A stretch of 31,596 nucleotides of DNA from a virus (taxonomy: Duplodnaviria > Caudoviricetes). Made by a program: the position numbers and the translations under genes. A model generated the notes under the pieces. The model was not told where the DNA came from, searched no databases, and was given only the letters and a program-made list of their open reading frames with translations. This document shows, in pieces, positions 11,541 through 31,596 of the stretch (position 1 is its first letter; every line of letters starts with the position of its first letter). The stretch covers positions 1 to 31,596 of the IMG/VR virus record IMGVR_UViG_3300046778_000118; one strand, given 5' to 3'.

Positions 11541-11549
11541 TATTTTAAG

Positions 11550-12203: not shown

Positions 12204-12252
12204 CTAAAATTCACCCCTATTTATAATTTGTATATGTATATAACATTCATTC

Positions 12253-12726: not shown

Positions 12727-12949
12727 CTTTAGCTACATCTAAGCTTTCTAAAGACTCAATACCCAATGGTATATCGGAATTATTATTGTAATGTCTTTCT
12801 AGAACTCTAGCAGCGCATACAAAAAAGTAAAAAGGAACTTCTACATCCTCTGAAGATTTTTCAATTAGGATGTTTCCTTTTTCATACTTAAAACTAATTG
12901 ATTTATCTCCGGGTAAATCAAATGCAACACCAAATTTTTTATCTAACAT
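12713..12949 (-). CDS. Hypothetical protein (78 aa)
   Basis: Co-oriented, tightly packed ORF. Confidence 0.6.
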   Translation of the reverse strand: MLDKKFGVAFDLPGDKSISFKYEKGNILIEKSSEDVEVPFYFFVCAARVLERHYNNNSDIPLGIESLESLDVAKDDLK

Positions 12950-12953
12950 ATTA

Positions 12954-13328
12954 TTACTTTATTTCAACATTGTCCATTACAAAATCATAGATTTGATTTT
13001 CTTCAAGATATGTTGTTTCCACATTATTTATTTCGTGAAGTTCTACATGGCAATTTTTGCATAACAAAATGCACTTCTCTAACTCAGGTAAAACTTTTTT
13101 CCAATTATGTAAATGCTGAGAAATAGCAAACTCCTTATCCTCACCATTTCTTATATGGTGAAAATCTAAAGCTGCTAAACACCTATCATAATGACATAAT
13201 TGACATTTGCCACCCTTTAATTGAATGGCTTTTAATTTATTTCTACGATACAAGTTCTTTCTGTTGCATAAAGTACAGAAAGAACTCTTACGAACAGAAG
13301 CTACTTTTTTACACTGTAAGCACAACAT
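12954..13328 (-). CDS. HNH endonuclease with zinc-binding CxxC pairs
   Basis: KGGKCQLCHY...LDFHH...ELEKCILLCKNCHVELH. Confidence 0.85.
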   Translation of the reverse strand: MLCLQCKKVASVRKSSFCTLCNRKNLYRRNKLKAIQLKGGKCQLCHYDRCLAALDFHHIRNGEDKEFAISQHLHNWKKVLPELEKCILLCKNCHVELHEINNVETTYLEENQIYDFVMDNVEIK

Positions 13329-13673
13329 CTAGATTAATTTTTCTAATACAGATAAAAGGATGTTTACTCTAAAGTCTTTACTTTTAAATTCTACTTTACA
13401 ATCATTTACTTGTATAAACATAAGTCTATTAGCCTCAATATTTATTGCAACATTTTCCTGACTCCAGCGGTAACAAGCTGTATAAGATAAATCTCCAATA
13501 CCTTTTGTAACCATTAGATTAAGCACATCATAAAATCTCTTAGAAAAGTCATGTATAGTTATAGAATCTTCATAAAACTTAATATTTATTATATTAGAAG
13601 AATCTGACTCATAAATTTCAACTTTAAGGTGCGCATCTATATATGTTTTTATAATTTTATTTTCTATAAACAT
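13329..13673 (-). CDS. Hypothetical protein (114 aa)
   Basis: Co-oriented, tightly packed ORF. Confidence 0.6.
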   Translation of the reverse strand: MFIENKIIKTYIDAHLKVEIYESDSSNIINIKFYEDSITIHDFSKRFYDVLNLMVTKGIGDLSYTACYRWSQENVAINIEANRLMFIQVNDCKVEFKSKDFRVNILLSVLEKLI

Positions 13674-13679
13674 ATTTAC

Positions 13680-14231
13680 CTACTCTAAATATTTATGAAC
13701 GGTTAAATAATCAAGAATATCTTTTACAGTATCTTTGGAAGACTTTAAATAAACTGGAAGATGTGAGTTATCTTCTAACCACTTCCGCATAATTTCTTCA
13801 TGCTCCATAGATTCTTCAGAAGTTTGATTACGACCAACTTCCTCGAAAGGAATCTCTGAATTCCTTTCGAGGAAAAAGCTTACATTATTCTGACCATTAA
13901 ACGTAGCCCAAGCATACGTACGCCACTCAGGAATACATCTGGGATTAGAATAAATTTGCCCGTAGAAATCAGCTAAGATAATAGGACTATCATTAATAAT
14001 AAAATCTACTTGATTCAAAGGCAAAGTTTGGTAATAAACTTGCTTCTCAAACACATAAGGTTGTTGTTTTAATGTTTTAAAGTCTTTTAACCAACTCTTA
14101 TTCTTAGCATATTCGTTTATATACTCCGCTGAACGACCCATTTTCTTTAAATGGTAAGCTAGTCCATATGCTGTAGTGGATTTTCCAGAGCCACTTGCTC
14201 CAAATAAATTAATTATTAATGTGTTTTTCAT
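13680..14231 (-). CDS. P-loop kinase/ATPase (NadR/AAA_28-like)
   Basis: IINLFGASGSGKST, EYAK, IINDSP and GRNQ. Confidence 0.8.
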   Translation of the reverse strand: MKNTLIINLFGASGSGKSTTAYGLAYHLKKMGRSAEYINEYAKNKSWLKDFKTLKQQPYVFEKQVYYQTLPLNQVDFIINDSPIILADFYGQIYSNPRCIPEWRTYAWATFNGQNNVSFFLERNSEIPFEEVGRNQTSEESMEHEEIMRKWLEDNSHLPVYLKSSKDTVKDILDYLTVHKYLE

Positions 14232-15014
14232 TTATATATGTATAACATCAGGACCTGTATAGTTATAGTCAAAATACAAGTCTTGCTTTCTTTCTACTCG
14301 ATGTGTTTTATGCAATAAAGCAACCATATTGTTATTGCAGGAAGTATTTCTACTTATTTGCTCTTCTTGAGACAAAACTGCAGGCTTATTATAAGCTAAA
14401 GGTTCTTTATACATAGAAACAAATCTATTACCTGTATAGGTTAATAGACCACTATGAAGTAATCTTCTACCATAATCAATATCTTGATATCCATATCTAA
14501 AGAAATTTAAGCAATCAAATCCACCAATAGTTTCTATGCAAAATCTACTGAGTAAATTAAATAGGCCAAAAAACTCTCCTTTTTGGTAAAGAGTTATGTC
14601 ATTTTCTAAGTGGATTTCTTCTGTAGAAGGGTGAGAATCTTCACAAATTGCATGAATATTAGGATCTTTTGCAACTTCTAATACTTTGTCAGCCCATCCG
14701 GGATGCATAAAAGCATCTCCATCAAGGAATAAGACATGAGTAAAGTTTTTAGACATAAAATATTGTAGAGCAGTATTTCGTGCTCCCGCCCAATCTTTTT
14801 CTGGAATAACATGAATATAGGATAAAGGAAATTCAGATAATCTTTCTAAAAGAGCTATATTTCTAACGTTATTGTTGATAACTTTATACTCAAATTCTGG
14901 TCTATCTTTAATGTGACCAAGCATCTGATGTATATGGTCGTATACATCAGATGCTTTACCTGAATATTGATCACCTTCAGGACACCAAATTAAACTACAT
15001 ATTAATATTTTCAT
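14232..15014 (-). CDS. GT-A fold glycosyltransferase (GT2-like)
   Basis: AGARN, LFLDGD (DxD motif) and IGGFD...YGYQDIDYGRR. Confidence 0.8.
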   Translation of the reverse strand: MKILICSLIWCPEGDQYSGKASDVYDHIHQMLGHIKDRPEFEYKVINNNVRNIALLERLSEFPLSYIHVIPEKDWAGARNTALQYFMSKNFTHVLFLDGDAFMHPGWADKVLEVAKDPNIHAICEDSHPSTEEIHLENDITLYQKGEFFGLFNLLSRFCIETIGGFDCLNFFRYGYQDIDYGRRLLHSGLLTYTGNRFVSMYKEPLAYNKPAVLSQEEQISRNTSCNNNMVALLHKTHRVERKQDLYFDYNYTGPDVIHI

Positions 15015-15018
15015 ACTT

Positions 15019-15732
15019 TTATTCTTTATGGCAATAGATTAATCTATCTAATCCAAATGCTATTTCTAATACTTCTGCATCAGATTCCACAACTCCAGAT
15101 TTACTCCCAAATTTTAATTTAGCTGGGAAATCTGTTCTTTTAGATATGGAACAAACCTCTAACCATTTAGCATTTGTTTTAACTTCTATATCTATTGTTT
15201 TAAGACTATAGTTAGGTAAGCGATCACTGACTACAACACGAACTTCTTTATTTGTTAATCTTGAAACAATTGGAACTAAACTTTCAATAATAGAAGTCAT
15301 ATAGTCATTTTTTGTAGAAGTAGAATATATACATTGATACTCTAATTGATAAAACTCTTTTAATCTAACATTAGAAGTTACTTGATCTTGTTCTTGACGA
15401 AAAGATTTACCTGATTGATAAACAACTAATGGAGCTAAATTTAATTTAGAGTCCATTAAATGAATTGCATATTGGTAAGATCCTGCAGTTGTTTCCGGTC
15501 GTAAGGTCAAATTATCTGACGTTTTATACACTTGAGAATCAGAATACTCTGGATTTATTAAAGCATTAGGAGTTAAAAGAGAGGATTCTATCCTATAAAA
15601 TTTCCAAGCATTGTTTTCTGTTAATAAAGATTCTTTTATAACAGATGAAATATATGTTGTACAAAATTCTCTAAATTGAATATCTTGTTCAGTCCACACA
15701 ACTAGTCCATTAGTATTAAAAATTGAAACCAT
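15019..15732 (-). CDS. Class II aminoacyl-tRNA synthetase catalytic core (GlyRS-like) lacking an anticodon-binding domain
   Basis: LRPETTAG, motif 2 QSGKSFRQE...RLKEFYQLEYQ, and motif 3 EIAFGLDRL ending 7 residues from the C-terminus; only 237 aa. Confidence 0.85.
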   Translation of the reverse strand: MVSIFNTNGLVVWTEQDIQFREFCTTYISSVIKESLLTENNAWKFYRIESSLLTPNALINPEYSDSQVYKTSDNLTLRPETTAGSYQYAIHLMDSKLNLAPLVVYQSGKSFRQEQDQVTSNVRLKEFYQLEYQCIYSTSTKNDYMTSIIESLVPIVSRLTNKEVRVVVSDRLPNYSLKTIDIEVKTNAKWLEVCSISKRTDFPAKLKFGSKSGVVESDAEVLEIAFGLDRLIYCHKE

Positions 15733-15956
15733 TATATTATCGATTCTATGTTTAAAAATGCTTGGGACAAACTCTTTGCATCTCTATGGTCTAAATATAG
15801 TGCAAAAGAAGATGTCTGAGTATACACAGTAAGCATAACTTTTATTGTAGATGTATAAACATGGTACGTAAGAAACGTACCATGTTTAATTTGCTGAGAA
15901 ATAGATTTTACATAATCTTTTTCTTTTATATGTTGAGAGTCTTTATACGTCTTCAA
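15732..15956 (-). CDS. Hypothetical protein (74 aa)
   Basis: Stop/start-coupled ORF. Confidence 0.55.
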   Translation of the reverse strand: MKTYKDSQHIKEKDYVKSISQQIKHGTFLTYHVYTSTIKVMLTVYTQTSSFALYLDHRDAKSLSQAFLNIESII

Positions 15957-16197
15957 TTTTACTATACTGTTCTTTTAGATTAGTTAGAGCATCAATAAGA
16001 TTATCAATGGTTACACTTGTAGGAAGACTTATAAGAGCTGAAAACTTTTTAGTTACTACATCTAATGTAATAAACTCAGAAAAGTTATCTTCTTCATAAG
16101 CTCTAACTAGATTAAAAGATACATTTTTATCCACACTTGAGATGAGTAAGATATTTCTCTCATCTATTAATTCTGTGTCTATATCAACTTGTTTCAT
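15943..16197 (-). CDS. Hypothetical protein (84 aa)
   Basis: Packed ORF with AAGGA upstream. Confidence 0.6.
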   Translation of the reverse strand: MKQVDIDTELIDERNILLISSVDKNVSFNLVRAYEEDNFSEFITLDVVTKKFSALISLPTSVTIDNLIDALTNLKEQYSKIEDV

Positions 16198-16206
16198 TTT
16201 TTTTCC

Positions 16207-16692
16207 TTACGATGTGGATCCAAATCCACCTTGTCTTTGACTTTCTCCACCGTTGTCATCTTCGGTTAGTAAATAAGGGGTGAAAATAACTTGGCCCAAC
16301 TTATCACCCTTTTTAATGACAACATCTTCATGTCCAAAGTTAAGAAGCATGAAAGACAGTTCGCCTTCATTCTTTGCATAATAATAATCAGAATCTACTA
16401 CACCTACATTGTTTGTAAGCATTAAATTCTTTTTTAAAAATAAAGAAGAGCGAGCGTAAACTAATGCGGCTACACCTTCGGGAAATTGAATTCTAATTCC
16501 AGTTCTTATCTTATGGACTACATTAGTTGTCCCTAAAGTCCCATCAAGGTTTACAAATGAAGTAAAAGAGGGAGAAAGAACTTTAGCTTCTCCTGCACAT
16601 AAATCATATCCTGCGGAACCATGTGTGGCTCGACTGGGTAATGGGAAATCTTCTGGACTAAACCCAGTTACATATTCAAACTTAATTGACAT
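16207..16692 (-). CDS. dut: Trimeric dUTPase
   Basis: SAGYDL, ARSS, GVVDSDY, GDKLGQ and RQGGFGST motifs. Confidence 0.95.
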   Translation of the reverse strand: MSIKFEYVTGFSPEDFPLPSRATHGSAGYDLCAGEAKVLSPSFTSFVNLDGTLGTTNVVHKIRTGIRIQFPEGVAALVYARSSLFLKKNLMLTNNVGVVDSDYYYAKNEGELSFMLLNFGHEDVVIKKGDKLGQVIFTPYLLTEDDNGGESQRQGGFGSTS

Positions 16693-17293
16693 TTTTATTA
16701 TTTTTCTTATCGATATTACATTGTTTACAACCTAAGCCATACAAATGATCTTTAGGTGCAATACTAAACTCCCCATGAACAGGGCAAATAATAATTACAG
16801 GTAAACGCATATTTCTGTAATTTGTTTTGGAGTAATCAAACTTTGAATTGTGAAAAGCATTTGCTTTATTTACAAATTCTTCTGGACTTAAACTATTTTT
16901 ATGAATTCTACAATGCTTACATTCTTGTCCTCTTAAATGATTTTGTACGTTTAGATTAAAATCTCCGTGATAGGGGCAAGTCACAGTAAATAGTTTATCT
17001 ATTCCAGTGTATACAGATTTTTCATATGAATACTTATTATTATAAAGTAAATTTGCTTTTCTAATAATTTCTTCCAATTGTAATTTAGGACGACGCTTAT
17101 TTAGACTACACTTCATACACCCACGACCTTTATAATGGTCGTGAGGTGTTTGTAAGAAGTCTCCGTGATATCTACAAGTAATTATAACTTTAGTATATTG
17201 ATTTACATATTTACTTTTAGAGTAATCATAAAAATCATCTTGGAGAAATTTTGCTTTTTCTATAAAATGAGCAGTAGTAGAAGCTACAGGCAT
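16682..17293 (-). CDS. Three-repeat zinc-ribbon protein (DUF723-like), no nuclease domain evident
   Basis: Three copies of K-A...Y.Y.K..Y......V.I.C..HG.F......H..G..CxxC. Confidence 0.75.
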   Translation of the reverse strand: MPVASTTAHFIEKAKFLQDDFYDYSKSKYVNQYTKVIITCRYHGDFLQTPHDHYKGRGCMKCSLNKRRPKLQLEEIIRKANLLYNNKYSYEKSVYTGIDKLFTVTCPYHGDFNLNVQNHLRGQECKHCRIHKNSLSPEEFVNKANAFHNSKFDYSKTNYRNMRLPVIIICPVHGEFSIAPKDHLYGLGCKQCNIDKKNNKNVN

Positions 17294-17297
17294 TTAA

Positions 17298-17858
17298 TTA
17301 ACCTTCTTTTCTAGGTCTACCTTTAGCCACAGGTTTTTCTGTTGAGCTAGGTTTCTCTGCACGTACATATAATGAAAAAGCTTTATGCTGGAGGTTGTGC
17401 ATATCTTGATGCTCTTCACGTTGAATATTTACAAATCCAAGTTCTTGAAGTGTCCAAGCTAAAGACGCAAAACAATAAGCATACTTGTGTCTCATATAAA
17501 TATTTGGTTCTCGGTGATCGCCACCAAAGAAATGATTTGCATCTTTCCAAAAGTAGTTATTAACACTTTCCCAGCTATTTTTTAATTGACAATCTGCAAA
17601 CTTATCATAGTCAGGTACAGCTATATGTAAAACACCGCCAGGTTCTAACAAGGAAAAGCATTTAGTCAAAAATGCTTTTCCATCTTCTCTAGTAAAATGC
17701 TCTAAAATATGACTTGCTAAAATCTCATCCGACTGAGGAAGAGGACGCCAATTATCACTAGTCAAATCTATAATTACATCAGCATTTTCAATATCAACTG
17801 TCAACCAACCAAGCATTATTCTGTCTGGATAATTTTGACAACCTAAATTTAATTTCAA
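17298..17858 (-). CDS. Class I SAM-dependent methyltransferase of the type found in glycan loci
   Basis: KLNLGC, ILASHILEHF and LEPGGVLHIAVPD. Confidence 0.85.
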   Translation of the reverse strand: MKLNLGCQNYPDRIMLGWLTVDIENADVIIDLTSDNWRPLPQSDEILASHILEHFTREDGKAFLTKCFSLLEPGGVLHIAVPDYDKFADCQLKNSWESVNNYFWKDANHFFGGDHREPNIYMRHKYAYCFASLAWTLQELGFVNIQREEHQDMHNLQHKAFSLYVRAEKPSSTEKPVAKGRPRKEG

Positions 17859-18130
17859 TCTAATTCTCTTTCTTTAGACACTAAATTTGAATCAATTTCA
17901 TTAAACTTTTGTAAGAAAAGTTTAGTTCCGATTAGATCTTCTTTAAATGTATGTTCAAAATCTAAGCGTATATTAATACTTAAATAATATCTTTTTAGTT
18001 CCAAATATTCATCTATACCAAAAGACTTATGTTCTTCAGGAGTTAATTCATACTCACATCTATCAAGCTGACCTAGTTTAATTTTAATTCCACGTTTAAT
18101 GGAATTCATTGTGGGAATATTACCAATCAT
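17855..18130 (-). CDS. Hypothetical protein (91 aa)
   Basis: Overlap-coupled ORF. Confidence 0.55.
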   Translation of the reverse strand: MIGNIPTMNSIKRGIKIKLGQLDRCEYELTPEEHKSFGIDEYLELKRYYLSINIRLDFEHTFKEDLIGTKLFLQKFNEIDSNLVSKERELD

Positions 18131-18560
18131 AATGACATCCTTTTATATTCTTTTCAAGTAAATGCTCTTTTAGTGCAATCATTCTTTCAACAGTCATAAA
18201 ATCATGTGCAATGTCATCATGATCTTCTATTGAGCCTTCATAATATATTCCATCTATAGCAACATTATCTTCTTCAAAATACTCAATATGTGCCACAAAA
18301 TCTACTGTTTCATTTCTATTTGCATATGCAAAGAAAAAATGCTTGTATTTTTCAGGAATGTCTAACCCTGGAAAACTATAAATAAACAAAGCTAAATCAC
18401 CAACATCTGTTTTAGAAAAAATATTCCATTTTTCGTTTAAAGGGATAGATTTATCTGTACAAAACTTTTTAACTTTAGAATAAAAATTATTTTTATATTC
18501 ATTAAATGATTTTAAATCTTCTAAAACATCTTCGGTAGTAACATAATCGCCTGTATGCAT
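18120..18560 (-). CDS. Hypothetical acidic protein (146 aa)
   Basis: Packed ORF. Confidence 0.6.
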   Translation of the reverse strand: MHTGDYVTTEDVLEDLKSFNEYKNNFYSKVKKFCTDKSIPLNEKWNIFSKTDVGDLALFIYSFPGLDIPEKYKHFFFAYANRNETVDFVAHIEYFEEDNVAIDGIYYEGSIEDHDDIAHDFMTVERMIALKEHLLEKNIKGCHYDW

Positions 18561-18593
18561 ACTTAACCAACTCTTTCGTGCATATAAACTTAT

Positions 18594-19394
18594 CTATTGC
18601 CATGCAATTTTATGTCTAAATGCAACTACTTTATTATTATATCTGGTGGTATATCCATCATTATCAATAGTTACTCCAGGATATAAACCAAAGTGAGCAT
18701 GGGTATGGAAACTGAGAGGTAGGATACGCTCTGTAAACTCAGAATCTTTTTGAATTAGCCAACTCATTAACCATTGTGCATTAGGATAAACAATAAATTC
18801 ACCTTCTTTTTTCCACAAAGTAATAAACTTTTCAGCTAAAGTACGCCAAGTTGCCACAGTAGCAATACAACATCCTGTGTTATAACACCTTGGAATGATA
18901 TTATCAGGCCACCATTCTCTTGTAAATGCAAACATATCCTGCTTACATATCAATCTACTAGCTTCAGCCCAAATAGAATCTGTTTCACTAGCATTAAAAT
19001 TAACTCCAAAGTCCCCATACTTAAAAGATTTAATATAATTAAGCTCTTCATCACTAAAAGGACGCTGTAAAATTACATCTCCATCAATAAAAATGATAAT
19101 ATCGTCATCTGCAAGAAACCCATTAGGGTATGCAGCTAAAAAATCACCATACTGAGGACTTTTATGCTGATTTAAACATCGAATTGATGACAAATTCAAA
19201 AAATTTGTCATAAATCGTGTAGAATTTGTGTTTAAAAAACTTTGTGGGGCCGTTGGAGCAAAAACATCAAACCCTGTAGACAAAAAATCTAGTTTAATTT
19301 CAGGATTTGCATTTTCATTAAGGTGGAGTAAGCATTTTTGAACATTATGAAAGTAATTTTGGTCGGAAGAAAGAGAAATTCGTATGTTTGCCAT
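18594..19394 (-). CDS. GT-A fold glycosyltransferase-like protein (non-GT2 type)
   Basis: IIIFIDGDVILQRP (DxD motif) and CYNTGCC resembling the NxG motif of GT8-like enzymes. Confidence 0.6.
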   Translation of the reverse strand: MANIRISLSSDQNYFHNVQKCLLHLNENANPEIKLDFLSTGFDVFAPTAPQSFLNTNSTRFMTNFLNLSSIRCLNQHKSPQYGDFLAAYPNGFLADDDIIIFIDGDVILQRPFSDEELNYIKSFKYGDFGVNFNASETDSIWAEASRLICKQDMFAFTREWWPDNIIPRCYNTGCCIATVATWRTLAEKFITLWKKEGEFIVYPNAQWLMSWLIQKDSEFTERILPLSFHTHAHFGLYPGVTIDNDGYTTRYNNKVVAFRHKIAWQ

Positions 19395-19395
19395 A

Positions 19396-19953
19396 TTAAA
19401 CCTCTAATTTAGGTAATACAGATGCAAAATTTAATGCCATATCAGAAGGAAAAAGCTCTTCTAAAGTATATTTCTCCCAAAAATAACAGGGCTGAGAGTG
19501 TGTTTCGGGATAAGTTACCTTACTTCTATATACTTTAGCTAAAGTTTTATAAACTTCTGTTTCTTTTGGTTCCCAGTCGGGTCTTTCAATATAAATGATT
19601 CTTCCAACACGTGCATTGATAGCTGCTTTAAGGCACTCAGAGCAGGGTTTGTGTGTACAATAGAGCATTGTGCCTTTAGTGTCAAAAGGAGCATTAAGAA
19701 TTGCGTTTACTTCTGCATGAACAACGTAATCGTATTTATGATCAGGAGACCAAAGCTCCGGAGGCTCGGGAATTCCTGCTGGAAATCCATTATAGCCTAC
19801 AGATAATTGGCGAGTGTCTGGAGTTACAAGACATGCACCAACTTTTGTTCTAGGATCTTTAGACATAGAAACAGAAGTCATCCATGCTAAACGTAAATAG
19901 TGTACATCATATTTTTTTACTGATGACATAGTTAAACTTTCTTTAGGAGACAC
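19396..19953 (-). CDS. dCMP deaminase
   Basis: SKDPRTKVGA, GYNGFP, HAEVNAI and PCSEC zinc motifs. Confidence 0.92.
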   Translation of the reverse strand: MSPKESLTMSSVKKYDVHYLRLAWMTSVSMSKDPRTKVGACLVTPDTRQLSVGYNGFPAGIPEPPELWSPDHKYDYVVHAEVNAILNAPFDTKGTMLYCTHKPCSECLKAAINARVGRIIYIERPDWEPKETEVYKTLAKVYRSKVTYPETHSQPCYFWEKYTLEELFPSDMALNFASVLPKLEV

Positions 19954-19980
19954 CTATAAAAGGTGTCTCCTAATATATAT

Positions 19981-20679
19981 TTATTTTACGGTAGTTGTTT
20001 TTACTTCTACAGTAGTAGTTGTTTTAACTGGAGGAGTGGCTACTTTATCTTCGATGGGTGCAAAAGCCATTTTAGAATTTGTGGTTCTATATGTTGCAAC
20101 TCCAGCGCTAAGACTTGCCCCCATACCACGAATACTTCCCTTATCACTAGTGTCATAAGCCATAGTATTTGCGGCTAGTACACCCATTCCACTTCCTTCA
20201 GCAAAAACATCGAAGTTTGCTCCAATGAAGGAGAAATCCCAATCTTTTTCTGCAGTAAGTAGCTTAATACGCTCACCAATTTTTGCTTTAGTAGAAGTTT
20301 TACTTGCATTATTAGCACCGTCTGTTAAAGTTACAAAAAGAACTTTGTCAGGACGATCATTTGGGTTTAAAGTATTAAAGAAGTTAATAGCATTGTCAAT
20401 TGTACGATCCATAGAATCATACAAAGCTGTACTACCACGAGGAACAAACTTCTCTGTTGGAAATTCTAACTCAGAATTAAATGTAGTCCACGGAATCAAA
20501 ACATCATATTCAGTATCAAACTGAGCCATGAAGAAAAGATCGTTATTTCCAGCTAACTTTTTCTGATCAGAAATAAAAGTTTGTAACCCACCCACAATAT
20601 CTTCTTTAATAGATTGCATAGATCCAGATCTATCAAGAAGAATTACAATAGCCGCACGTTTATGATTAATATTATTCAT
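19981..20679 (-). CDS. von Willebrand factor A domain protein
   Basis: MIDAS LLDRSGSM, PRGSTALYD, LTDG and FIGAN; Thr-rich C-terminal tail. Confidence 0.9.
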   Translation of the reverse strand: MNNINHKRAAIVILLDRSGSMQSIKEDIVGGLQTFISDQKKLAGNNDLFFMAQFDTEYDVLIPWTTFNSELEFPTEKFVPRGSTALYDSMDRTIDNAINFFNTLNPNDRPDKVLFVTLTDGANNASKTSTKAKIGERIKLLTAEKDWDFSFIGANFDVFAEGSGMGVLAANTMAYDTSDKGSIRGMGASLSAGVATYRTTNSKMAFAPIEDKVATPPVKTTTTVEVKTTTVK

Positions 20680-20691
20680 TATTTTTTCTTT

Positions 20692-20997
20692 CTACTGAGG
20701 AATTTTCTCAGTAAGGATAGCTCTTGCTTTTGAAGATGCTTCCTCTAATTCTTTTATACTTAGACCACCAATATACTCAGACTCTCCAGTAACTAAATCA
20801 TAAAGAATTAGTCCAAAAGAGTAGGAATCTAAAGGTGGTCTATCTGTAGCATTTAAGTATAGATAATAAACACAAGGAGAGAGATTTAATTCTAAAGAAT
20901 AAAAAGTCTCTCCTATACAAATCATATTTAAACTCATTGTATTTTTAGGTAAATTATTTTTGCGGTTTTCCATTAATGAGTTAATGTCTATACTCAT
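20692..20997 (-). CDS. Hypothetical protein (101 aa)
   Basis: Overlap-coupled ORF. Confidence 0.55.
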   Translation of the reverse strand: MSIDINSLMENRKNNLPKNTMSLNMICIGETFYSLELNLSPCVYYLYLNATDRPPLDSYSFGLILYDLVTGESEYIGGLSIKELEEASSKARAILTEKIPQ

Positions 20998-21233
20998 TTT
21001 AGTTTTTCTGCAAGTTCTAGAATTGCTGCTTTACTAATAACACCAATTTCATGAATTATTCCTAATTCATTTATATCTACCAGTGCATAATACTGAGAAG
21101 CAATCGAAGATGTTTCTTCTTTTAAATCCATTCGACTTACAGTATCAACAGACACATCAAAAAAAACATTTTCTGTATCTATAATACATAGACTTTTATA
21201 TCTATCTTTCATTGTAGCCATAATATTTTTCAT
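20994..21233 (-). CDS. Hypothetical protein (79 aa)
   Basis: GAGGAG upstream; overlap-coupled. Confidence 0.6.
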   Translation of the reverse strand: MKNIMATMKDRYKSLCIIDTENVFFDVSVDTVSRMDLKEETSSIASQYYALVDINELGIIHEIGVISKAAILELAEKLK

Positions 21234-22092
21234 ACTCCTCAGGATACTTAGACTTAACCCAATCCTCTAATGTTAACGAAGTTTTCAAGAAAGTTGCCTC
21301 ACCTTTGTATTCATCTTCAATAGCACCAATTGAAGGCTTACTCCAATGCCATCCTTCTAATTCCATAATATACCCTTTAGTAGATATACTAGGGGAACTT
21401 CGTAATGACCAGTCTGCATCCTCAGAGCCAAACACAGCACCTGCATTCATTGCCCTGTAGGAGCCTCCACAAGCCTCAAATACGGCTTGTGGAACACAAT
21501 GGCAATAACCTGCCACACCGTCATAATGATAAATGGTAGCCTCCGAAATTCTATACTCAGATAATAAAAGTTCTCTATTCAACGAAGGAAATAAAGTATC
21601 TGACTTTATCTTTTCTCCGACTGTATCAGATAAATCTAATTTAGAGATAAGCTGAGGAGATGCTCCTTGAGAATAGTATTGCATTCCTTTAGGAGTTTCT
21701 TTTTTTACTGAGGGTGAGAGCAATCTATATTGAGGATATTTCTGGAATATCCTCAATATAGTAGAATCCCAAAGTGGAGGCACACCATAATCATGATCCA
21801 ACTTAACTACCATGTCATAAGACATAGCCATTGCACGAGATAAAGATTTATTAGTGCATTCTAAAGCAGTTACACGCTCAGGTAAACTGATGATGGTAAA
21901 GATAGCATTCTCAGCTAACTTATTTCCCCACTCTTTTTGAATAGTTTCTCTAACTACCCCTAAAGTATTATCTTTAGACCCATTGTCACAAATTACCAAA
22001 TGAAAGTTTGTTTCTGTATGGCGAATTAAACTTGTAATTACTTGACCAATTAAAGGCTCAATATTACATACAGGTAAACCAACATAAATCAT
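21202..22092 (-). CDS. GT2 family glycosyltransferase
   Basis: LPVCN, ICDNGSKDNT, VVKLDHD and FGSEDADWSLR. Confidence 0.88.
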   Translation of the reverse strand: MIYVGLPVCNIEPLIGQVITSLIRHTETNFHLVICDNGSKDNTLGVVRETIQKEWGNKLAENAIFTIISLPERVTALECTNKSLSRAMAMSYDMVVKLDHDYGVPPLWDSTILRIFQKYPQYRLLSPSVKKETPKGMQYYSQGASPQLISKLDLSDTVGEKIKSDTLFPSLNRELLLSEYRISEATIYHYDGVAGYCHCVPQAVFEACGGSYRAMNAGAVFGSEDADWSLRSSPSISTKGYIMELEGWHWSKPSIGAIEDEYKGEATFLKTSLTLEDWVKSKYPEEYEKYYGYNER

Positions 22093-24550: not shown

Positions 24551-24601
24551 AGTTTACCTGCCTATTGCTTAACACTGCTTTCAACAATATTAAGTCTGCA
24601 C

Positions 24602-24637
24602 AGAAAACTATATTTCCTATAAAAAATATAGTTTTCT
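24602..24637. repeat. 14-bp perfect inverted repeat
   Basis: AGAAAACTATATTT (24602-24615) pairs with AAATATAGTTTTCT (24624-24637). Confidence 0.85.
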
Positions 24638-24711
24638 ATTTTTTATTAAGACACACAAGATAGAGGGCCATACCCTTTTATATAAACCCCCACCCCAATT
24701 TATTAAGTATT

Positions 24712-24768
24712 TTTTTGGAGAGAGGAGAGAGGTAAAAAGATAGAAATTTTTGGAGAGAGGAGAGAGGT
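24712..24768. repeat. 22-bp purine-rich direct repeat, two copies
   Basis: TTTTTGGAGAGAGGAGAGAGGT at 24712-24733 and 24747-24768 (35-bp period). Confidence 0.9.
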
Positions 24769-24980
24769 CTCAGTATACCCATGTTAAAGAAACTACCTGG
24801 GGGTATGTTTTTAGTGGAGGCCGGTACAGCGTGTACCGCAACCTTTCTAACATCTAGCCTTACACTTGTTCATGATCTTGCGGACAGGATCAAACTCAAA
24901 TGTTCATGTGTAATGAGACGATGCTAACTGGGTTACTTGGTCAAGCTTCCTAAGCTTGTCCTATTCAAAAGGAAACTACT

Positions 24981-25574
24981 ATGTCAACTAACAACACCAA
25001 CTCTACGTCTACCAACAACAACGACACCAAGGATAAACAAATGTTCACTATCAACAACATTACTATTGGGGAATTCGTCACCCCTACAATCGTCAAGGTC
25101 ACCAACATCAGTGTGGAATCTGCCTCTGCAGTCGAGACCTACCTCAACACCAACACCAATGCTGAACTGTTCACTCGCAAGGATGGCGTGAAGTTCATCC
25201 GTGTCAAGTGTACTGAGAGCATGTTCGTGTTCTTGTTCCAGATCGCCAAAGATTGGGGATTCCAGGCAATCGCCAAGTATGTCTGGTCTGCAATCGTCGA
25301 AGGTTGCAAGGAAGGCTGGAAGGTTGTGGTTAACTTCTTCAATACTCTTCCTGAGACGGCTAAAGCCAAGTGGGCTGAGTTTGTTTACATCTGCAACAAC
25401 TTGGGTAATGTGAGCTTGGCTGACTGGATGAAGGTCATTGCTAACATTATCATCACTGTGGCATGTGCCGCTATTGTGATTGCTTACCCTACGCTTGCCG
25501 TTACTTTACTGGTGACTGGTTGGGCATGTGGTCTCTGGAACTACTTGTCTGTGTTTGTTCACAACAACAGCTAA
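24981..25574 (+). CDS. Hypothetical membrane protein, first gene of the rightward arm
   Basis: AAGGA SD, Asn/Thr-rich N-terminus and two C-terminal hydrophobic helices. Confidence 0.75.
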   Translation: MSTNNTNSTSTNNNDTKDKQMFTINNITIGEFVTPTIVKVTNISVESASAVETYLNTNTNAELFTRKDGVKFIRVKCTESMFVFLFQIAKDWGFQAIAKYVWSAIVEGCKEGWKVVVNFFNTLPETAKAKWAEFVYICNNLGNVSLADWMKVIANIIITVACAAIVIAYPTLAVTLLVTGWACGLWNYLSVFVHNNS

Positions 25575-25586
25575 TACTTAAGTAAA

Positions 25587-25623
25587 ATATAGGAACAATA
25601 CCTTAATGGTATTGTTCCTATAT
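25587..25623. other. 16-bp perfect hairpin immediately 5' of hammerhead 1
   Basis: ATATAGGAACAATACC - TTAAT - GGTATTGTTCCTATAT. Confidence 0.8.
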
Positions 25624-25680
25624 AGAGTCGTAAGCTCTCATGCTTACCTGATGATGGCCTAATTGAGGGCCGAAACTCTA
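25623..25680 (+). ncRNA. Type III hammerhead ribozyme 1
   Basis: Stem III UAGAG/CUCUA, GUC site (cleavage 3' of C25629), stem I GUAAGC/GCUUAC, CUGAUGA (25648-25654), an extra U, stem II GGCC/GGCC, and GAAA (25672-25675). Confidence 0.92.
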
Positions 25681-25703
25681 ACTCATCAGTGAAAGTCACA
25701 ACA

Positions 25704-26018
25704 ATGAACACTACTATCTATGTCACCCTCTCCACCACCATTTCTACTGTCAATGCTTTGCACATGCGTGTGCTGGGGGAAACAACTACCACTAGTACCC
25801 TGACCTTCTCGGAGGCGATTAATTCCCTCAATGCATTACAGTCTGCTACAATGGATGCGTTTCACTTCGAAGGTGGGGACAACTTTATCAATCCTGTTTA
25901 TGTCTTCTCCAAGGAGATGGGCGATGTAAAGGAGATTGTTCGCCAGGATATGCTCATCACTTGGGAAACAATTTCTGATGATGAGAATGCTCTAATCATT
26001 GGAGTGTTCTCTAAGTAA
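25704..26018 (+). CDS. Hypothetical protein (104 aa) downstream of hammerhead 1
   Basis: Track ORF 25689..26018; ATG 25704 is the likelier start. Confidence 0.65.
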   Translation: MNTTIYVTLSTTISTVNALHMRVLGETTTTSTLTFSEAINSLNALQSATMDAFHFEGGDNFINPVYVFSKEMGDVKEIVRQDMLITWETISDDENALIIGVFSK

Positions 26019-26025
26019 TTGTTAT

Positions 26026-26073
26026 AAGCTGGGGAATGAGTTGTCAAAACCTTGTAATCCATTCTCCAGTTTT
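26026..26073 (+). repeat. Repeated stem-loop, copy A (terminator- or RNase III-like)
   Basis: AAGCTGGGGAATG...CATTCTCCAGTTT, followed by T's. Confidence 0.75.
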
Positions 26074-26106
26074 CTGTTTATGTCACTAAAGAAAGAATCT
26101 ACTAAA

Positions 26107-26391
26107 ATGAAACAACTAATCTCTACACTTCAAATCAACAACAATATTGTTACCTTCATTAATGAGGGTAATCTAGTTTTAGGGTCCTTTTGGGGCCTGG
26201 AGTACCCTAACTTCTGGAAGTTGGTTACTATTGAGGGAGATCTTGTAACAATAACATTTCCCTCCAGTATTACATATATCTGGCATACTGAGTATAATAT
26301 CACTCTCCGCACTGAGAATATTTACTTTACTATCCGGAGAAATATAACACTAGAAGGGATTGAGTGGATACCTGGAGCCCAAGTAAAATAA
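26107..26391 (+). CDS. Hypothetical protein (94 aa)
   Basis: Likely start is ATG 26107 (MKQLIST), since the track's upstream extension runs through the hairpin. Confidence 0.6.
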   Translation: MKQLISTLQINNNIVTFINEGNLVLGSFWGLEYPNFWKLVTIEGDLVTITFPSSITYIWHTEYNITLRTENIYFTIRRNITLEGIEWIPGAQVK

Positions 26392-26404
26392 TATTTAAGT
26401 AATA

Positions 26405-26432
26405 TGGAAGGACACGCACATGTGTCCTTCCA
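26405..26432. other. 11-bp hairpin
   Basis: TGGAAGGACAC pairs with GTGTCCTTCCA. Confidence 0.75.
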
Positions 26433-26459
26433 CTCTCTATTCCAAAGAAAAATAATCAA

Positions 26460-26588
26460 ATGAAAATCACTGTCACAATTTCCCGCAAGTCAACTCCTGT
26501 TCTAACTTTGTCTGTTCCTCTAGACAAGGCAGATGAAATTATTCAGATGGCTCTAAGCTATGGATTGGAGTATCATATCTGGGAATAA
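26460..26588 (+). CDS. 42-aa small protein MKITVTISRKSTPVLTLSVPLDKADEIIQMALSYGLEYHIWE
   Basis: Not in the track. It fills the space between two hairpins and has an A-rich leader. Confidence 0.6.
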   Translation: MKITVTISRKSTPVLTLSVPLDKADEIIQMALSYGLEYHIWE

Positions 26589-26602
26589 ACTAAATAAATA
26601 AG

Positions 26603-26650
26603 AAGCTGGGGAATGGATCTTGAACATATTAAAATCCATTCTCCAGTTTC
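26603..26650 (+). repeat. Repeated stem-loop, copy B
   Basis: AAGCTGGGGAATGGAT...ATCCATTCTCCAGTTT: same arms as copy A with a different loop. Confidence 0.75.
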
Positions 26651-26667
26651 TTTGAAAGTATTATATC

Positions 26668-26729
26668 AATAGAGTCGTAGGTCACTCAACCTACCTGATG
26701 ATGGCTAAATCGAAAGCCGAAACTCTATT
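26668..26729 (+). ncRNA. Type III hammerhead ribozyme 2
   Basis: Stem III AAUAGAG/CUCUAUU, GUC site (cleavage 3' of C26676), stem I GUAGGU/ACCUAC, CUGAUGA (26695-26701), an extra U, stem II GGCU/AGCC, and GAAA (26719-26722). Stems covary with hammerhead 1. Confidence 0.93.
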
Positions 26730-26749
26730 CATCAGAAGGAACAACAACT

Positions 26750-26917
26750 ATGTCACTTCAGACTGCAACCACGATCATGCTGATCGCTCTCTACTTTGTG
26801 TTCGGTGTTCTTGTAACCATCGCAACAGTTTTTGAACTGTTGCAAATCAAGACTGGACGGGCTCTACTCTTGGCCGGTCTTATGGTCTTGGGTTACCTGC
26901 TGGCGTCTATCAACTAA
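26750..26917 (+). CDS. 55-aa two-TM membrane protein
   Basis: Not in the track. AAGGA SD; MSLQTATTIMLIALYFVFGVLVTIATVFELLQIKTGRALLLAGLMVLGYLLASIN. Confidence 0.7.
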   Translation: MSLQTATTIMLIALYFVFGVLVTIATVFELLQIKTGRALLLAGLMVLGYLLASIN

Positions 26918-26943: not shown

Positions 26944-27288
26944 ATGTCAACTTTTGTCAATATCAACTCTGTCGTCACTCCTTTCCTAATGGGAAGTTTC
27001 TGCTTTGGAATCAACGGAAATATGGTGGATCCATTTTCAGATGATCTTCCAACCCTTACTGAAGGAGATAAGGTAGAAATCATGGTTCTTGCATTTGAGT
27101 GCTGTCTATCACTTTCTAGAATCTGGTCTCAATCTTTTCATGTTGCTACTTTCACATATACTCCGGGAATGACCTTCCTGGATGTATGTTTGAAAATAGC
27201 AAGTAAAGAAGGGAGCTTTCACACTAATTCAAATTTGCTTGAAAAAGCTAAGTTTGATTTGGAAATGGATCCTTTTAATGAAGACTAA
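26944..27288 (+). CDS. Hypothetical protein (114 aa)
   Basis: Co-oriented ORF with the shared ACTATGTCA start context. Confidence 0.65.
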   Translation: MSTFVNINSVVTPFLMGSFCFGINGNMVDPFSDDLPTLTEGDKVEIMVLAFECCLSLSRIWSQSFHVATFTYTPGMTFLDVCLKIASKEGSFHTNSNLLEKAKFDLEMDPFNED

Positions 27289-27373
27289 GGTTTTCATACT
27301 CACTATCTCTTTTTCTTACTCAAGTAAGAAATCTGTCCACGTCACTGTTTGTCTGTTTGGAAAGTAAATAACT

Positions 27374-30300
27374 ATGTCACAAAATATGTTCGCTTTAAAC
27401 ATCGTCTCTACTCCTGTAACTGGAGTACTCAACACCACACCGGCTTTGTCCGAGTATGTGGCGGCTTGCTTGGAGCATGTCTGGTCTACCACTCTGGAGG
27501 CGGATGGTACTCTTGAGTCGTGTGCTAAGGTTGTCATGGGCAAAATGCACCCCGATAACCAAGCCTACGACTCCTTCCAGAAGTTCGAGACCTTTGTGAA
27601 GAAGAACACCTTTGGGCGCTTCTTCTTCAAAGGTATCTATGCTGTTGGCACCTTGGCTGATTACCAGGCTGCTAAGCAGTATATTCAGAATGAGGACCCG
27701 TCTTACACTGATCTGGAAGCTCACAAACTTACTATTATGGCATTGACTCTAGGTACCATCCTGGATCAACGCTATGCTGGTGAGAAGATGTGGGTACCAG
27801 TTGGCGGTACTCGGGTCTACTTTACAGTTCCTAACCTTCTGTCTCCTATGAAGATGAAGAAGTTGCTGTACAAGACCACTGAAGGCTCTGAAATGCCTTT
27901 AGTGGGCTTTCGTGTTAGCAATGCCTTCTTAAATAAGTTGACGGAGGAGGCTACTACTGCTAACAAGAAGTATGTAGACTTTGGTCAGGCTCGCTATGCT
28001 GATCAGTTCCGCCAGCTGCATCACAAGAATATTGTGAGTTTGTTTACGGAGTCGATTCTCAAGCGTGAGAGTGGTGAGCTGGGCCTTATGTGGGCTTGGA
28101 CTCACTTCTCTAATCTTCAGATCGGCGAAGTAGGCTACGATGTTACTGTGGCTGAGGAATGGGTTAAGAAACTTCTTCAGAGCGGTGTCCGTAAGGGCTA
28201 CCTGAACAAGTCCCAGGCTAAGGCTATTGGGCGTACGTTCAAGAATTACCCTGGTATCCTTAATGGTAGCCAGATTCTTGGTCTTCGTCACCCAGTTACC
28301 TCAGCTAATGGTGCTGACAATCTGACTATTCGGGTTGTTAATGCACATAGCCGAATGGTTGGAGTCTCAGCTGAGACTGCCAAAGCCATGCTGGGTGACT
28401 TTGACCATGACTTGTTCATGGGTACTTACTTCTCAGGATCGGACTTCCAGATTGCAGATGAGAAATCTGCAATCAAGTTGTTGATTGAGAATGCCCACAA
28501 GGTATCTCTTGGTCATACTGAGGGGTTTGAGGTTATTGAGGCACACAAGCCTCTTGCACCTTTTACCAATCAACTGACGCTACAGTCCGTCTATTGGGTC
28601 AACAACTGGGATGATGAGGTAGGGACACCTGGTGGTTCTACAGCTTTTTCCACCATTCTTGGTGGTGAGTCTAAGGCTTCTGTGGGTCTGTTCAAGAATA
28701 GATTCTACTGGGGTTGTGAGACCATTCTGATGACCCAAGCCACTGATCAGCAGATTGTTGATCTGGCTATCGTTGTCACCAATAGCAAGTTTGTTGATGA
28801 ATTCAACAAACTTGCTGTTGCAAAAGCACTGGAGGTGTTTCTAGCAAATCAGGTTAAAGAGACGTTAGCGGCTCTTGTCATCAAAGTAATTTACGCTTCG
28901 TATTACGGAGTAGAAGAGAAGTTGATGGATGCAGCTAAACGTAAGCTTAGCATTGGTGCTGATGGTGTTATCCGTGTCACTAAGGAGAATCAGGGCTTTG
29001 ATCCTGAGGCTCTTGTTCAGGCTACCATTTCTGGTGGTGGTCTTGACTGGGATGCACTATCTACTGAGCTTGAAGTTGCTCCTCTTAAATTGATTGTAGC
29101 CTTGAGCTACGGTCGGTTTGAAGGTGCTGATGACCCCTTTATGGCCGCTATGAATTCCTTCTATCGCTTCTCTCTCATTGAGAAGAGAAACTGGATGGAG
29201 AAGGGTTGTTATGTTAAGGACGTTCGTCGTGAGGCTTATGAGCTTTCTGAGGTACTTGTATCTCAAGACATGCAGTCTTACGTGGATGCCTTGACTCACT
29301 TCCCTTACATTGGAAACATGTGGCCTTCAGAGTATCAAACTCTGGAGGGGGCTATTCAGCGTATTGAGGAGTTCTTCCTCACCGTGCCTTCAATCGATGT
29401 GTATCAGAAAGAAAGTCTGATGGATTTTGCATGCAATGAGTCTCCTCTGCAGTATGCAACATTTCAAGATTTTAATCTCAATACCATTGCTGAGTTTGAG
29501 TACAAGATGGATAAGACTTGTACTCTTGTAGTTAATGTCACTGTAGGAGGTGTTGTTCGTCAGGCTGTAGTAGACACCTATAAGGCAGTCTATTTGGATT
29601 CCAATAAGAGTATGGTTGATGCTTATGGGCGTCAATCTGCACACTCTTGGAGTCGTCTGGACTCCAAGAATGACGCTATCTATTTCTTTGGGCCTCGTGT
29701 CCAAGCAATGGAGCTTTCACCTGTGGGAGCTAAGCGTTCGTTAACTCCTCAATTGGAGCCTGGGACTCGTAAAGATCCGATGCCTTACAACCCAGCTTCC
29801 CCTATTACTTTAAAGCTTGTTGATATGCCTTTGTGGCTGAGTCAAGAAGCTCAGGTAATCTGGGATAAGGTTTACCGTGAAGGTGGACGATCTGAAGCTG
29901 ATACGAAAGTGGAGAAAGCACTTTCTGCAATTGAGTTCAGACTACGGGAGATTCTACAGAAACTCCCCAACATCAAGAAAGACTCTGAGCACCTTGAGAC
30001 ATCTCAGGATGGTACTTCTGCCAAATCGCAGAAATACTCCCTCAAGAGTGTTCCTATTTCTTTCTTGTCTGAGTTTGTGTGGATTCATCTGCCTAAGCTC
30101 ACAAATGCGGATTATGAGATTGCTGTTCGTCGTCACATGTGGGCGACACTTGAGCGTATTGGATATGATCTTCGCCTTACTTCCCACGCATTGCGTGGGG
30201 ATAAAGTGGGCGTACAACGTGGGGATTCTGATTTCCTACGTGATTGTGTTCCATTCGGCCAAGTCAGCAATCGCAATCGCCAGTCTAAGCTTGTTTCTAC

Positions 30301-31596
30301 TATGGAGCGGCATATTCTGGTTAATAATCCAATTCGTGAGTTTACTGCTCGGATTGATCTGAATGCAATTCAGTCGGGTACGTGTACTCAGTTGAATGTG
30401 ATGTATGTCACATCCAACATGTTTGGACCACAAGCTGGGATTGAGCCCTGTGATGAAACTCATCGTACTATCGCTGGTACTTATGCTCTTATGAGCAGTC
30501 GTACTGCATGGCGTGTAGTTACTGAAGAGGAGTATATTGCATTCTGTGAGGAGTATAAAGCAAACTTGGACTTGCTTGCTTTGGTCGATGCCAAAGCAAG
30601 ATATGTCTTTGTTCATGACAACCTGGAGGAGCGACAGTGGTTTCTTCCTGAAAATGTACAAGAGCTAACAACTCAATACAAGAAGCTGGTGTATAACATC
30701 AGAGGTGGTTCTGTAAACACTCACTTGAATGTAGACTATGTGGCAACCTATCATCCAGTTTCTTCCCTAGAAGATCTGACTGATGATAACTCTAAGGTTG
30801 TTCACATTATTGATAGTGCAAATGCACTGGCTAAGAAAGGAGCCTTTAACATCATTCTCGAATTGGTTTACTCTCAGTTGTCCCTGGAGGGTCGTGCTAA
30901 GTTGGATGCACTAGTGCATTATAACTTCTGTACTTCTCGACAGTTGATCTCACATAAGAGATCTGAAGCTGCTTTCCGTGCATCTAAGGGTGCTGGGGAT
31001 GCTGTTTCAATTAACCAGTTCACTGGTGAGGACTCTGACTATGTAAGCCTACTAGAGCAAGCACTCTTGGCTGAAGGCAAGAGTGCTACGGGTGAGATGT
31101 ATATCTACCAAAAAGTAGATGGACAACTCATTCCGGTGTTGCTGGAGGATGGTACACAGTATAAGTGTCTTGTTGGTGCTGTCACAACTTTCCAAGCTAA
31201 CTATGATGGTGAGCAGGGATCCTACAATATCATTTCTCAAAGTGGTGTTAGTATGGATCCTCATATTCGCACTATGTGTGGTGCGGGTATTAAGCTCACT
31301 GAGAAAGAGCTGGATCTTTGGGATATGGTCCAACTCAATACTCTCAGCTTCTCCACTCCCAACGATAATGGCAATGGCATGATTCGTTGGATCGGAAATA
31401 AACCTAATGCGTCTATAGATGCGAAACGGGAAGCACTTACTGCAAAGTATATTGCTCGACGTACTTCACGTCTTATGATTCAAGAGGATAAAGCTGTGGT
31501 TGCGGAATTGGTTCAGCAGTTTAATGAAGTTGTAACTTCTCAAGCCGCTGAACTCGTTTTCCCTGATGAACTAAACCTCTGGAACGAGGAGCAGGA
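27374..31596 (+). CDS. Giant single-chain two-barrel (DPBB) RNA polymerase-like protein, beta'-like half first and beta-like half second; 3'-truncated by the window edge
   Basis: Not in the track because it has no stop codon in the window. Hand translation is open for 1407 codons. Beta'-like motifs: FTESILKR...LQIGEVG, LRHP (R305), GDFDHD (D342-D346). Beta-like motifs: CVPF..NR..MERH (~958), [10 protein letters not shown] (~1103-1110), [12 protein letters not shown] (~1144), TGEMYIY...CLVG (~1240). Confidence 0.8.
   Translation, partial: [1407 protein letters not shown]

Follow-up and report, generated by a model that had tools for sequence, protein, structure and literature searches.

A conserved complement of the catalytic core follows each of two hammerhead ribozymes in a phage gene cluster

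Why would a phage carry, downstream of each of its self-cleaving ribozymes, an exact complement of the ribozyme's own catalytic core? This question is raised by the 31,596-nucleotide (nt) stretch studied here, which we call the window (positions 1 to 31,596 of IMG/VR record IMGVR_UViG_3300046778_000118, a virus of the Caudoviricetes). A sequence-only reading had proposed that two covarying type III hammerhead ribozymes punctuate an operon leading to an RNA polymerase (RNAP) gene. We found that both hammerhead motifs, here named HH1 and HH2, are real. We also found an element that this reading had missed: a heptamer, UCAUCAG, downstream of each ribozyme, which is complementary to the core strand CUGAUGA and which, in folding predictions, alters the fold of the ribozyme. 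We refer to it as the anti-core.

A descriptor search of both strands of the window returned exactly two type III hammerheads and none of type I or II. HH1 occupies 25623..25680 and HH2 26668..26729, both on the plus strand, with predicted cuts after C25629 and C26676, respectively. The claim of two complete sense-strand cores about 1.05 kb apart was therefore confirmed, the exact spacing being 1047 nt. In HH1, stem III is formed by 25623-25628 and 25675-25680, C17 is 25629, stem I has 6 base pairs (bp), stem II has 4-5 bp, and the core comprises CUGAUGA (25648-25654), an extra U (25655) and GAAA (from 25672). The corresponding parts of HH2 are stem III (26668-26675 and 26722-26729), C17 (26676), CUGAUGA (26695-26701), the extra U (26702) and GAAA (from 26719). 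Both copies possess the invariant core (C3 U4 G5 A6 N7 G8 A9, G12 A13 A14, A15.1-U16.1 and an H17 that is not G), the G10.1-C11.1 pair and three stems, of which I and II are closed by loops and III is open; the extra U lies between A9 and G10.1. None of 300 dinucleotide shuffles gave a match with stems of at least 6/4/6 bp, and any loose match was seen in 6/300. The isolated motifs fold as hammerheads, with z-scores of -3.65 (HH1) and -3.38 (HH2).

Comparison of the two copies bore out the compensatory stem changes that had been proposed: all three double changes occur, two of them in stem I and the third in stem II. Intact cores together with three compensatory pairs point to selection for catalysis, and HH1 and HH2 are probably active. 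The two copies share the same stem III (6/6 on each strand), at positions that vary freely across the family. Elsewhere, identity between the copies is 7/7 in the anti-core, 0/6 in loop I, 5/8 in loop II, 6/14 in the 14-nt leader and 4/14 in the upstream 14 nt. Covariation was also present in an alignment of selected sequences (A5); it follows from how those sequences were selected and was not counted as support.

The sequence-only reading had pointed to an extra U and to CUCA in loop I as shared traits. The extra U is indeed found in both copies, but CUCA occurs in different registers of loop I, as reflected in the ungapped identity of 0/6. A CUCA/UGAG contact between loops I and II is possible at the sequence level in HH1 and is not kept in HH2, and loop kissing was therefore rejected as a common feature. 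The loop II of HH1 (UAAUUGAG) is common to 11 of the 198 control hammerheads described below.

A search with Rfam hammerhead models, which had been suggested as a check, was only partly favorable. On 101-nt stretches the top match was RF00008 (Hammerhead_3), with 29.8 bits for HH1 and 35.4 bits for HH2, but these scores are under the cut-off of 48.5 and a scan of the whole window reported no hammerhead. RF00008 has the same core and topology as HH1 and HH2 and is the best Rfam match over the full model; the two copies differ from it in the extra U between A9 and G10.1 and in loop sizes. By sequence, then, they belong to the type III hammerhead class and, being below the gathering threshold, not to the curated RF00008 family. 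An extra base at position 9/10.1 is reportedly found in a viroid hammerhead, going by the title of a cited paper. Penelope-like elements also have one between positions 9 and 10.1 (PMC4209133). A model, R1, built from 60 randomly picked members of 105 eligible extra-U hammerheads on other contigs, scored HH1 at 57.6 bits and HH2 at 52.5 bits; it detected no third hammerhead in the window, where the next score was 10. Rfam psbA matches at 25584-25623 were dismissed as generic hairpin matches below cut-off.

The first anti-core (25683..25689, plus strand) is perfectly complementary to CUGAUGA 25648-25654 and is separated by 14 nt from the ATG at 25704. The second (26729..26735, plus strand) is complementary to 26695-26701, ends 14 nt before the ATG at 26750 and adjoins AAGGA, a possible ribosome-binding sequence. 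All seven positions are kept between the copies across a 1-nt indel. Using shuffled downstream regions of the controls, we estimated the chance of a perfect 7-mer anti-core at 3.4e-4 per ribozyme, a value that overstates the significance somewhat because the anti-core was noticed after folding. One possibility for this element is that it is the trace of a minus-strand hammerhead. This was rejected, as the minus strand holds no hammerhead of type I, II or III and R1 found no third match.

To place the two ribozymes among their kind we assembled 198 distinct type III hammerheads by three pattern scans that imposed no downstream sequence, followed by a descriptor filter. The scans supplied 124 loci from 18/64 viral parts, 120 from 16/64 viral parts and 116 from 15/64 metagenome parts; loci lacking a type III fold were dropped, nine further pattern matches that looked like type I when inspected were excluded, and in one row (L178) the parse ran to a distal GAAA. 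The set contains 116 extra-base members, which is not an estimate of frequency because the controls were selected by pattern.

Core complements recur in these controls. A 7-mer anti-core was present in 1 of 198 compared to 0.09 expected, which is not significant. At least six nucleotides matched in 6/198 (0.61 expected), a count reached in none of 2000 shuffles and by no anagram permutation, and a 5-mer matched in 7/198 (2.7 expected, P 0.02). The complements also follow the variable core position N7: AUCAG accompanies U7 cores in three cases and GUCAG accompanies C7 cores in four, with a mismatch in two other NUCAG cases. When downstream regions were swapped among the control ribozymes, this match had P 0.003-0.004. 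Because the four C7 cases are related to one another, the independent lineages number about four. Targeted scans of the whole viral collection (33 and 63 loci) yielded three type III cases, L012 (on the same contig as L118), L018 and L025, none of which has the extra U. The combination of an extra-U type III hammerhead with an anti-core was likewise absent from 120 loci from 52/64 parts of the genome collection and from the viral scan. By these counts the anti-core, though a real feature, is minor and labile, being present in about 3% of the sample.

Other phage type III hammerheads with a core complement in the same register are L012, L018, L025, L135, L250, L259 (two of its four copies), L285 and L335. 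A separate recurring family (L015, L017, L019-L021, L028, L035, L039 and similar loci) combines CUGAUGA, a 2-bp stem II, GAAAC and UCAUCAG, and does not fit type III.

When HH1 and HH2 were folded with their flanks, both gave an alternative structure. There the full core strand is base-paired to the anti-core, stem II is lengthened through U9a-G12, in which the extra U is the partner of G12, and the 3' strand of stem III is left as a bulge of 9-10 nt. The order of events in a growing transcript is predicted to be hammerhead first, lock second. Stem III pairing is at least 0.75 for transcripts ending at 25679-25687 and at least 0.93 for those ending at 26727-26734, after which the locked fold dominates. 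This order holds at 10, 20 and 37 C and under two dangle models, and under it the hammerhead dominates while the transcript grows by about 8-9 nt. For transcripts that stop where stem III ends, the active fold carries a predicted penalty of 0.56 kcal/mol in HH1 and 0.68 kcal/mol in HH2, compared to a control median of 1.89, which suits early cutting. Downstream sequence then adds 1.89 and 1.19 kcal/mol, respectively, and adds as much in 15 and 29 of 197 controls.

Once 30 nt of downstream sequence are included, the penalty totals 2.46 (HH1) and 1.88 (HH2) kcal/mol, compared to a control median of 2.06, and 81 and 107 of 197 controls reach or exceed these values. The lock thus leaves the precursors no more inhibited than is usual, and this speaks against a tight off switch. 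Low stem III probability was rejected as a sign of inhibition, since the control median is likewise 0.10. The 3' products behave differently from the controls: pairing of the core in the product is 0.95 for HH1 and 1.00 for HH2 against a control median of 0.47, and it reaches 0.8 in only 7/198 controls, which are exactly the seven with a matching 5-mer.

It is this contrast, an ordinary penalty in the precursor and sharp core pairing in the 3' product, that leads us to favor a cut-then-lock sequence. We regard it as moderately probable that the transcript is cut co-transcriptionally at C25629 and C26676 and that UCAUCAG then pairs with the freed CUGAUGA and locks the product. Cleavage would occur during transcription, before the anti-core emerges and takes over. 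Refolding would eject the upstream fragment and prevent re-ligation; the downstream mRNA would acquire a 5'-OH end under two stacked hairpins followed by a 14-nt open leader, and the upstream fragment would terminate shortly behind the hairpin that it carries. Some transcripts would probably stay uncut because of the lock, which would tune gene ratios. Both 5'-OH ends and terminal hairpins resist 5'-end-dependent decay. In their full form type III hammerheads can exceed rates of 100 per minute, according to a review, and in one study (PMC2817708) a hairpin ribozyme cleaving co-transcriptionally in vitro was slowed just 2-fold by downstream competitors.

Several observations weigh against cut-then-lock. 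A cutting window of 8-9 nt, as predicted, may not allow much cleavage, and in an account of work in yeast, downstream competitors of at most 9 bp exchanged fast and blocked the ribozyme. The folding model includes neither tertiary contacts nor Mg2+. Two of the six control cases (L135 and L250) have an anti-core that shares sequence with stem III, including the fixed C15.2, and the N7 match may owe something to GC content. About 97% of the controls have no 6-mer anti-core, nor do six close relatives of L118, so the element is not needed for processing. Finally, the comparison between copies involves two sequences only, possibly products of a recent duplication. It is limited to these because no relative with the same spacers was found save a contig identical to HH2 and short pieces; the identical contig, from a run of another study, matches across 26668-26800, and a pattern scan for close relatives of the cassette was empty.

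A simpler explanation is plain constitutive processing, in which both ribozymes cut and the anti-core is a neutral by-product of cassette duplication. The near-median penalties (2.46 and 1.88 against 2.06 kcal/mol) are what such ribozymes would show, most phage hammerheads do without an anti-core, and the extra-U and anti-core combination did not recur in the 120 genome-collection loci or the viral scan. However, neutrality sits poorly with a 7/7 match whose chance rate is 3.4e-4 per ribozyme, with its retention across the indel while the flanks diverged, and with the roughly tenfold enrichment of N7-matched 6-mers in unrelated phage contigs. We therefore consider this explanation unlikely, although it deserves more credence than the remaining ones.

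It could also be speculated that the anti-core is a switch: most precursors would be held inactive until ribosome loading at the next start codon removes the lock, and cutting would thereby depend on the initiation of translation of the downstream gene. The 14-nt distance from the anti-core to the ATG is the same in both copies despite the indel, and the locked fold is more stable by 2.1 and 2.4 kcal/mol at the level of secondary structure. When -18 to +13 was held unpaired, stem III pairing rose from 0.00-0.20 to 0.57-0.98 (10, 20 and 37 C). Regulation of phage hammerheads had itself been a matter of speculation in Perreault 2011 (PMC3088659). On the other hand, a footprint beginning at -12 flips neither copy and one beginning at -15 flips HH2 only, and the footprint size used in folding is an assumed value. 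The spacing in other anti-core hammerheads is 20-32 nt and once 120 nt, and total inhibition is average among the controls. Gating by ribosomes is therefore rather improbable. The same low standing applies to its boldest form, namely that there is a recurring subclass of phage hammerheads with a cis antisense core lock, opened here by ribosome loading at the next gene, which would determine the composition of the transcript that leads to the phage's RNA polymerase.

Another possibility is that the 1047-nt piece between the cuts circularizes. The 5' stem III strand of HH2 and the 3' strand of HH1 would rebuild a hammerhead, and the anti-core would lock the circle, as in viroid-like RNAs. Hammerhead cleavage leaves a 5'-OH and a cyclic phosphate, and the piece would have these ends. 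Both stem III strands are identical between the copies (6/6 and 6/6) though variable across the family; however, four unchanged free pairs are unremarkable when 3 of 10 other pairs changed, and the lock is more likely to block ligation than to follow it. Tandem arrays gave no circular or spliced products in Perreault 2011 (PMC3088659), and circularization is accordingly very unlikely.

How ordinary is the setting of the two ribozymes? The sequence-only reading had drawn attention to the upstream hairpin, a leader of about 74 nt and the extra U, and none of the three sets them apart from phage type III controls. An ATG-started frame lies within 150 nt in 185 of 198 controls, with a median leader of 68 nt (interquartile range 63-75). 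In the window we measured 74 nt for HH1, as claimed, and 73 nt for HH2, one less. The 52 nt upstream reach a folding energy of -12 kcal/mol or below in 60% of 197 controls compared to 28% for shuffles, and nine control loci carry two to four hammerhead copies. A hairpin, a hammerhead, a short leader and an ATG thus make up a standard phage cassette, since the controls show the same layout. Rarity of the extra U was rejected as well: 120 loci from 16/64 parts of the viral collection contain 85 distinct extra-U type III motifs, and such motifs are abundant in viral contigs. The abundant extra-U type III hammerheads span viral and metagenome loci L105-L464.

The spacers around HH1 and HH2 contain four strong hairpins on the plus strand. 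The first, a perfect 16-bp hairpin that we call type A (25587..25623), abuts stem III of HH1, shares one base with it and would lie 6 nt from the 3' end of the upstream product. A long type B hairpin (26026..26072) stands between genes 2 and 3 and a perfect type A hairpin (26405..26432) between genes 3 and 4, neither followed by a hammerhead. The fourth, a long type B hairpin (26600..26652), is 79% like 26026-26072 and ends 15 nt before HH2. These placements slightly correct the claim that each ribozyme lies just after a strong hairpin. The order over the four consecutive spacers is A, B, A, B, with a hammerhead after the first and fourth only. Hairpin 26026-26072 folds at -20.3 kcal/mol on the plus strand versus -10.5 on the minus strand; this bias of type B favors plus-strand RNA as a matter of folding only, not of read-through. 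Type B hairpins could be RNase III sites or terminators. Contigs from a related phage (single and of low depth) join A-like and B-type hairpins to other leaders, so the spacers look modular and the ribozyme an optional insert.

These hairpins suggest a further explanation, in which the long hairpins of the spacers provide the punctuation, as RNase III sites, terminators or exonuclease barriers, and the ribozymes are mostly silenced or incidental. Strong hairpins occupy all four spacers and hammerheads only two, contigs of a related phage join the same hairpin types directly to leaders, and the locked fold dominates at equilibrium. Nevertheless, the intact cores and the three compensatory pairs point to selection for catalysis, and Perreault found activity in 14 of the 18 consensus hammerheads assayed (PMC3088659). 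We regard silenced ribozymes as highly improbable.

Other details of the spacers are as follows. The type B hairpins 26026-26072 and 26603-26649 are paralogous, with conserved arms, plus-strand G-U pairs and U-rich tails. Directly after the hairpin of spacer 3-4, positions 26432-26445 show a short match to the 3' tail of HH2, either the scar of a lost hammerhead or a chance resemblance. A near-palindrome of the type TAYTYAAGTA lies directly behind stop codons and ahead of type A hairpins (25572-25597 and 26389-26414), with a near match at about 24699. The motif is found on the plus strand at 25575, at 26392 and at 27317..27326, the last being 48 nt before the large open reading frame (ORF) described below. 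It has six matches in the window compared to 0.95 expected, for a motif defined after the fact, and shows no excess when one mismatch is allowed. A role as promoter or operator is possible from its sequence and placement.

The terminase and portal genes of the window match Pfam and PHROG families, which identifies it as a phage contig. Its closest terminase relatives are Moorella phage MTATph1 and, second best, Bacillus phage 0305phi8-36, at 23-30% identity, and the sequence is contained in freshwater metagenome runs, two of them its possible source. No RNA run was listed among them, and two metatranscriptome runs gave no sequence here, which counts neither for nor against transcription. Genes run on the minus strand as far as 24550; from 24981 onward six small ORFs and one open-ended ORF lie on the plus strand. 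Gene 1 (24981..25574; 197 amino acids) has no family match, and gene 2 (25704..26018; 104 amino acids), the first downstream of HH1, has no significant one. Gene 3 (26107..26391; 94 amino acids) and gene 4 (26460..26588; 42 amino acids) fall within the 1047-nt piece. Genes 5 (26750..26917; 55 amino acids, hydrophobic) and 6 (26944..27288; 114 amino acids) lie between HH2 and the large ORF. The two sense-strand ribozymes thus bracket genes 2-4. A sigma-70 scan of the window gave 11 sites compared to 7.8 expected, none of them useful.

The divergent non-coding region at 24551-24980 carries a perfect 22-nt purine-rich direct repeat (at 24712 and 24747) and an AT-rich 14-bp inverted repeat (24602-24637), and it is possible that it holds promoters, an origin or a genome end. 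The leaders of gene 1 (24956-24986) and the large ORF (27349-27379) are 74% alike over 31 nt. At 10446-22092 are sugar-modification and nucleotide genes: UDP-galactopyranose mutase, several glycosyltransferases, dUTPase, dCMP deaminase, a thymidylate kinase-like gene, a class II tRNA synthetase-like core and HNH nucleases.

The large ORF (27374..31596, plus strand) is open-ended and encodes at least 1407 amino acids, including R305-x-P307 and D342-x-D344-x-D346. These residues fit the barrel A (MgA barrel) signature of two-barrel polymerases, R-x-P plus DxDxD (PMC2919709), and R305, P307, D342, D344 and D346 are invariant in the 5/5 and 7/7 aligned sequences that cover them. The distance from R-x-P to DxDxD is 37 residues, compared to 33 in Rpb1 and 45 in Qde1 (PMC2919709), and phage 0305phi8-36, mentioned above for its terminase, encodes a YonO-like protein. 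Unlike in YonO-like polymerases, the motif is near the N-terminus, and the ORF had no Pfam, PHROG, NCBIfam or PDB sequence match. An Atlas lead gave PF05183 at 0.89 and 0.88. Two structure models were weak to moderate, with predicted local distance difference test (pLDDT) values of 44.8 and 62.8, the latter strand-rich around the motif. Profile search found eight distant relatives, which come with no genomic context; no locus related through this ORF was found in viral or metagenome contigs or annotated phages, and two protein searches were empty. Taken together, the motifs make it likely that the ORF encodes a two-barrel RNA polymerase chain. The ORF and its relatives form a polymerase-like family with DFDHD near the N-terminus and no library match, and in one short-contig pair the protein is seemingly split into 323-331 and 961-962 amino acids (P0001/P0009 and P0004/P0010).

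The identity of the RNAP gene proposed by the sequence-only reading is therefore likely, but its suggestion that the second cut defines the 5' end of the RNAP message is weak: the ORF starts 697 nt after that cut, behind two small ORFs, and has the possible promoter or operator motif 48 nt upstream.

The reading's broader proposal, that the hammerheads process a polycistronic transcript, describes a likely role but is not new. Clusters of prophage hammerheads were proposed to process phage transcripts by Perreault 2011 (PMC3088659), where three tandem arrays were cleaved in vitro, and one in E. coli, with no circular products. Those arrays, like the one described here, consist of several intact sense-strand hammerheads around short blocks of small genes. 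The same paper places a single hammerhead just before an early gene of the lytic haloviruses HF1/HF2, and the 5' end of a halophage transcript maps within 3 nt of a hammerhead cut (PMC3088659). Reviews call the in vivo role of bacterial and phage hammerheads unsettled (PMC6765202, PMC6155905). The difference lies in the perfect core complement downstream, which is not described in the main-text sections of PMC3088659 compared here; its supplements and alignments may hold cases. Literature searches aimed at such a complement, covering result listings and the openings of abstracts in a mostly open-access library, gave no description of one in phage hammerheads. HH1 and HH2 are ordinary members of an abundant phage cassette, and the conserved anti-core is what sets them apart from most others.

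Two other systems offer comparisons. An alternative inactive fold is reportedly adopted by the hammerhead of the BYDV satellite, as a paper's title has it. Viroid and satellite RNA hammerheads are likewise selected to act during transcription in the face of competing folds (PMC3185496). They serve rolling-circle replication, however, and here there is no minus-strand hammerhead to explain the complement. RiboJ, engineered from the sTRSV hammerhead (PMC6206723), is likewise a self-cleaving ribozyme upstream of a ribosome-binding site that leaves a hairpin-bearing 5' end, and it raised mRNA about twofold and protein two- to tenfold (PMC6206723). Its hairpin is an added 23-nt stem, whereas here a second hairpin would form from the catalytic core itself; the likeness is one of function, not of membership.

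These data bear on a class of ribozymes that is widespread: viral contigs hold many extra-U type III hammerheads, and HH1 and HH2 fall below the Rfam cut-off. Because the variable N7 and its anti-core partner can be swapped without touching the invariant core, the lock, the switch and the neutral by-product could be told apart with a few short RNAs. If ribosomes open the lock, this would be a regulated natural hammerhead in a phage. If instead the lock seals the products of cleavage, it would provide a natural design for irreversible insulators.

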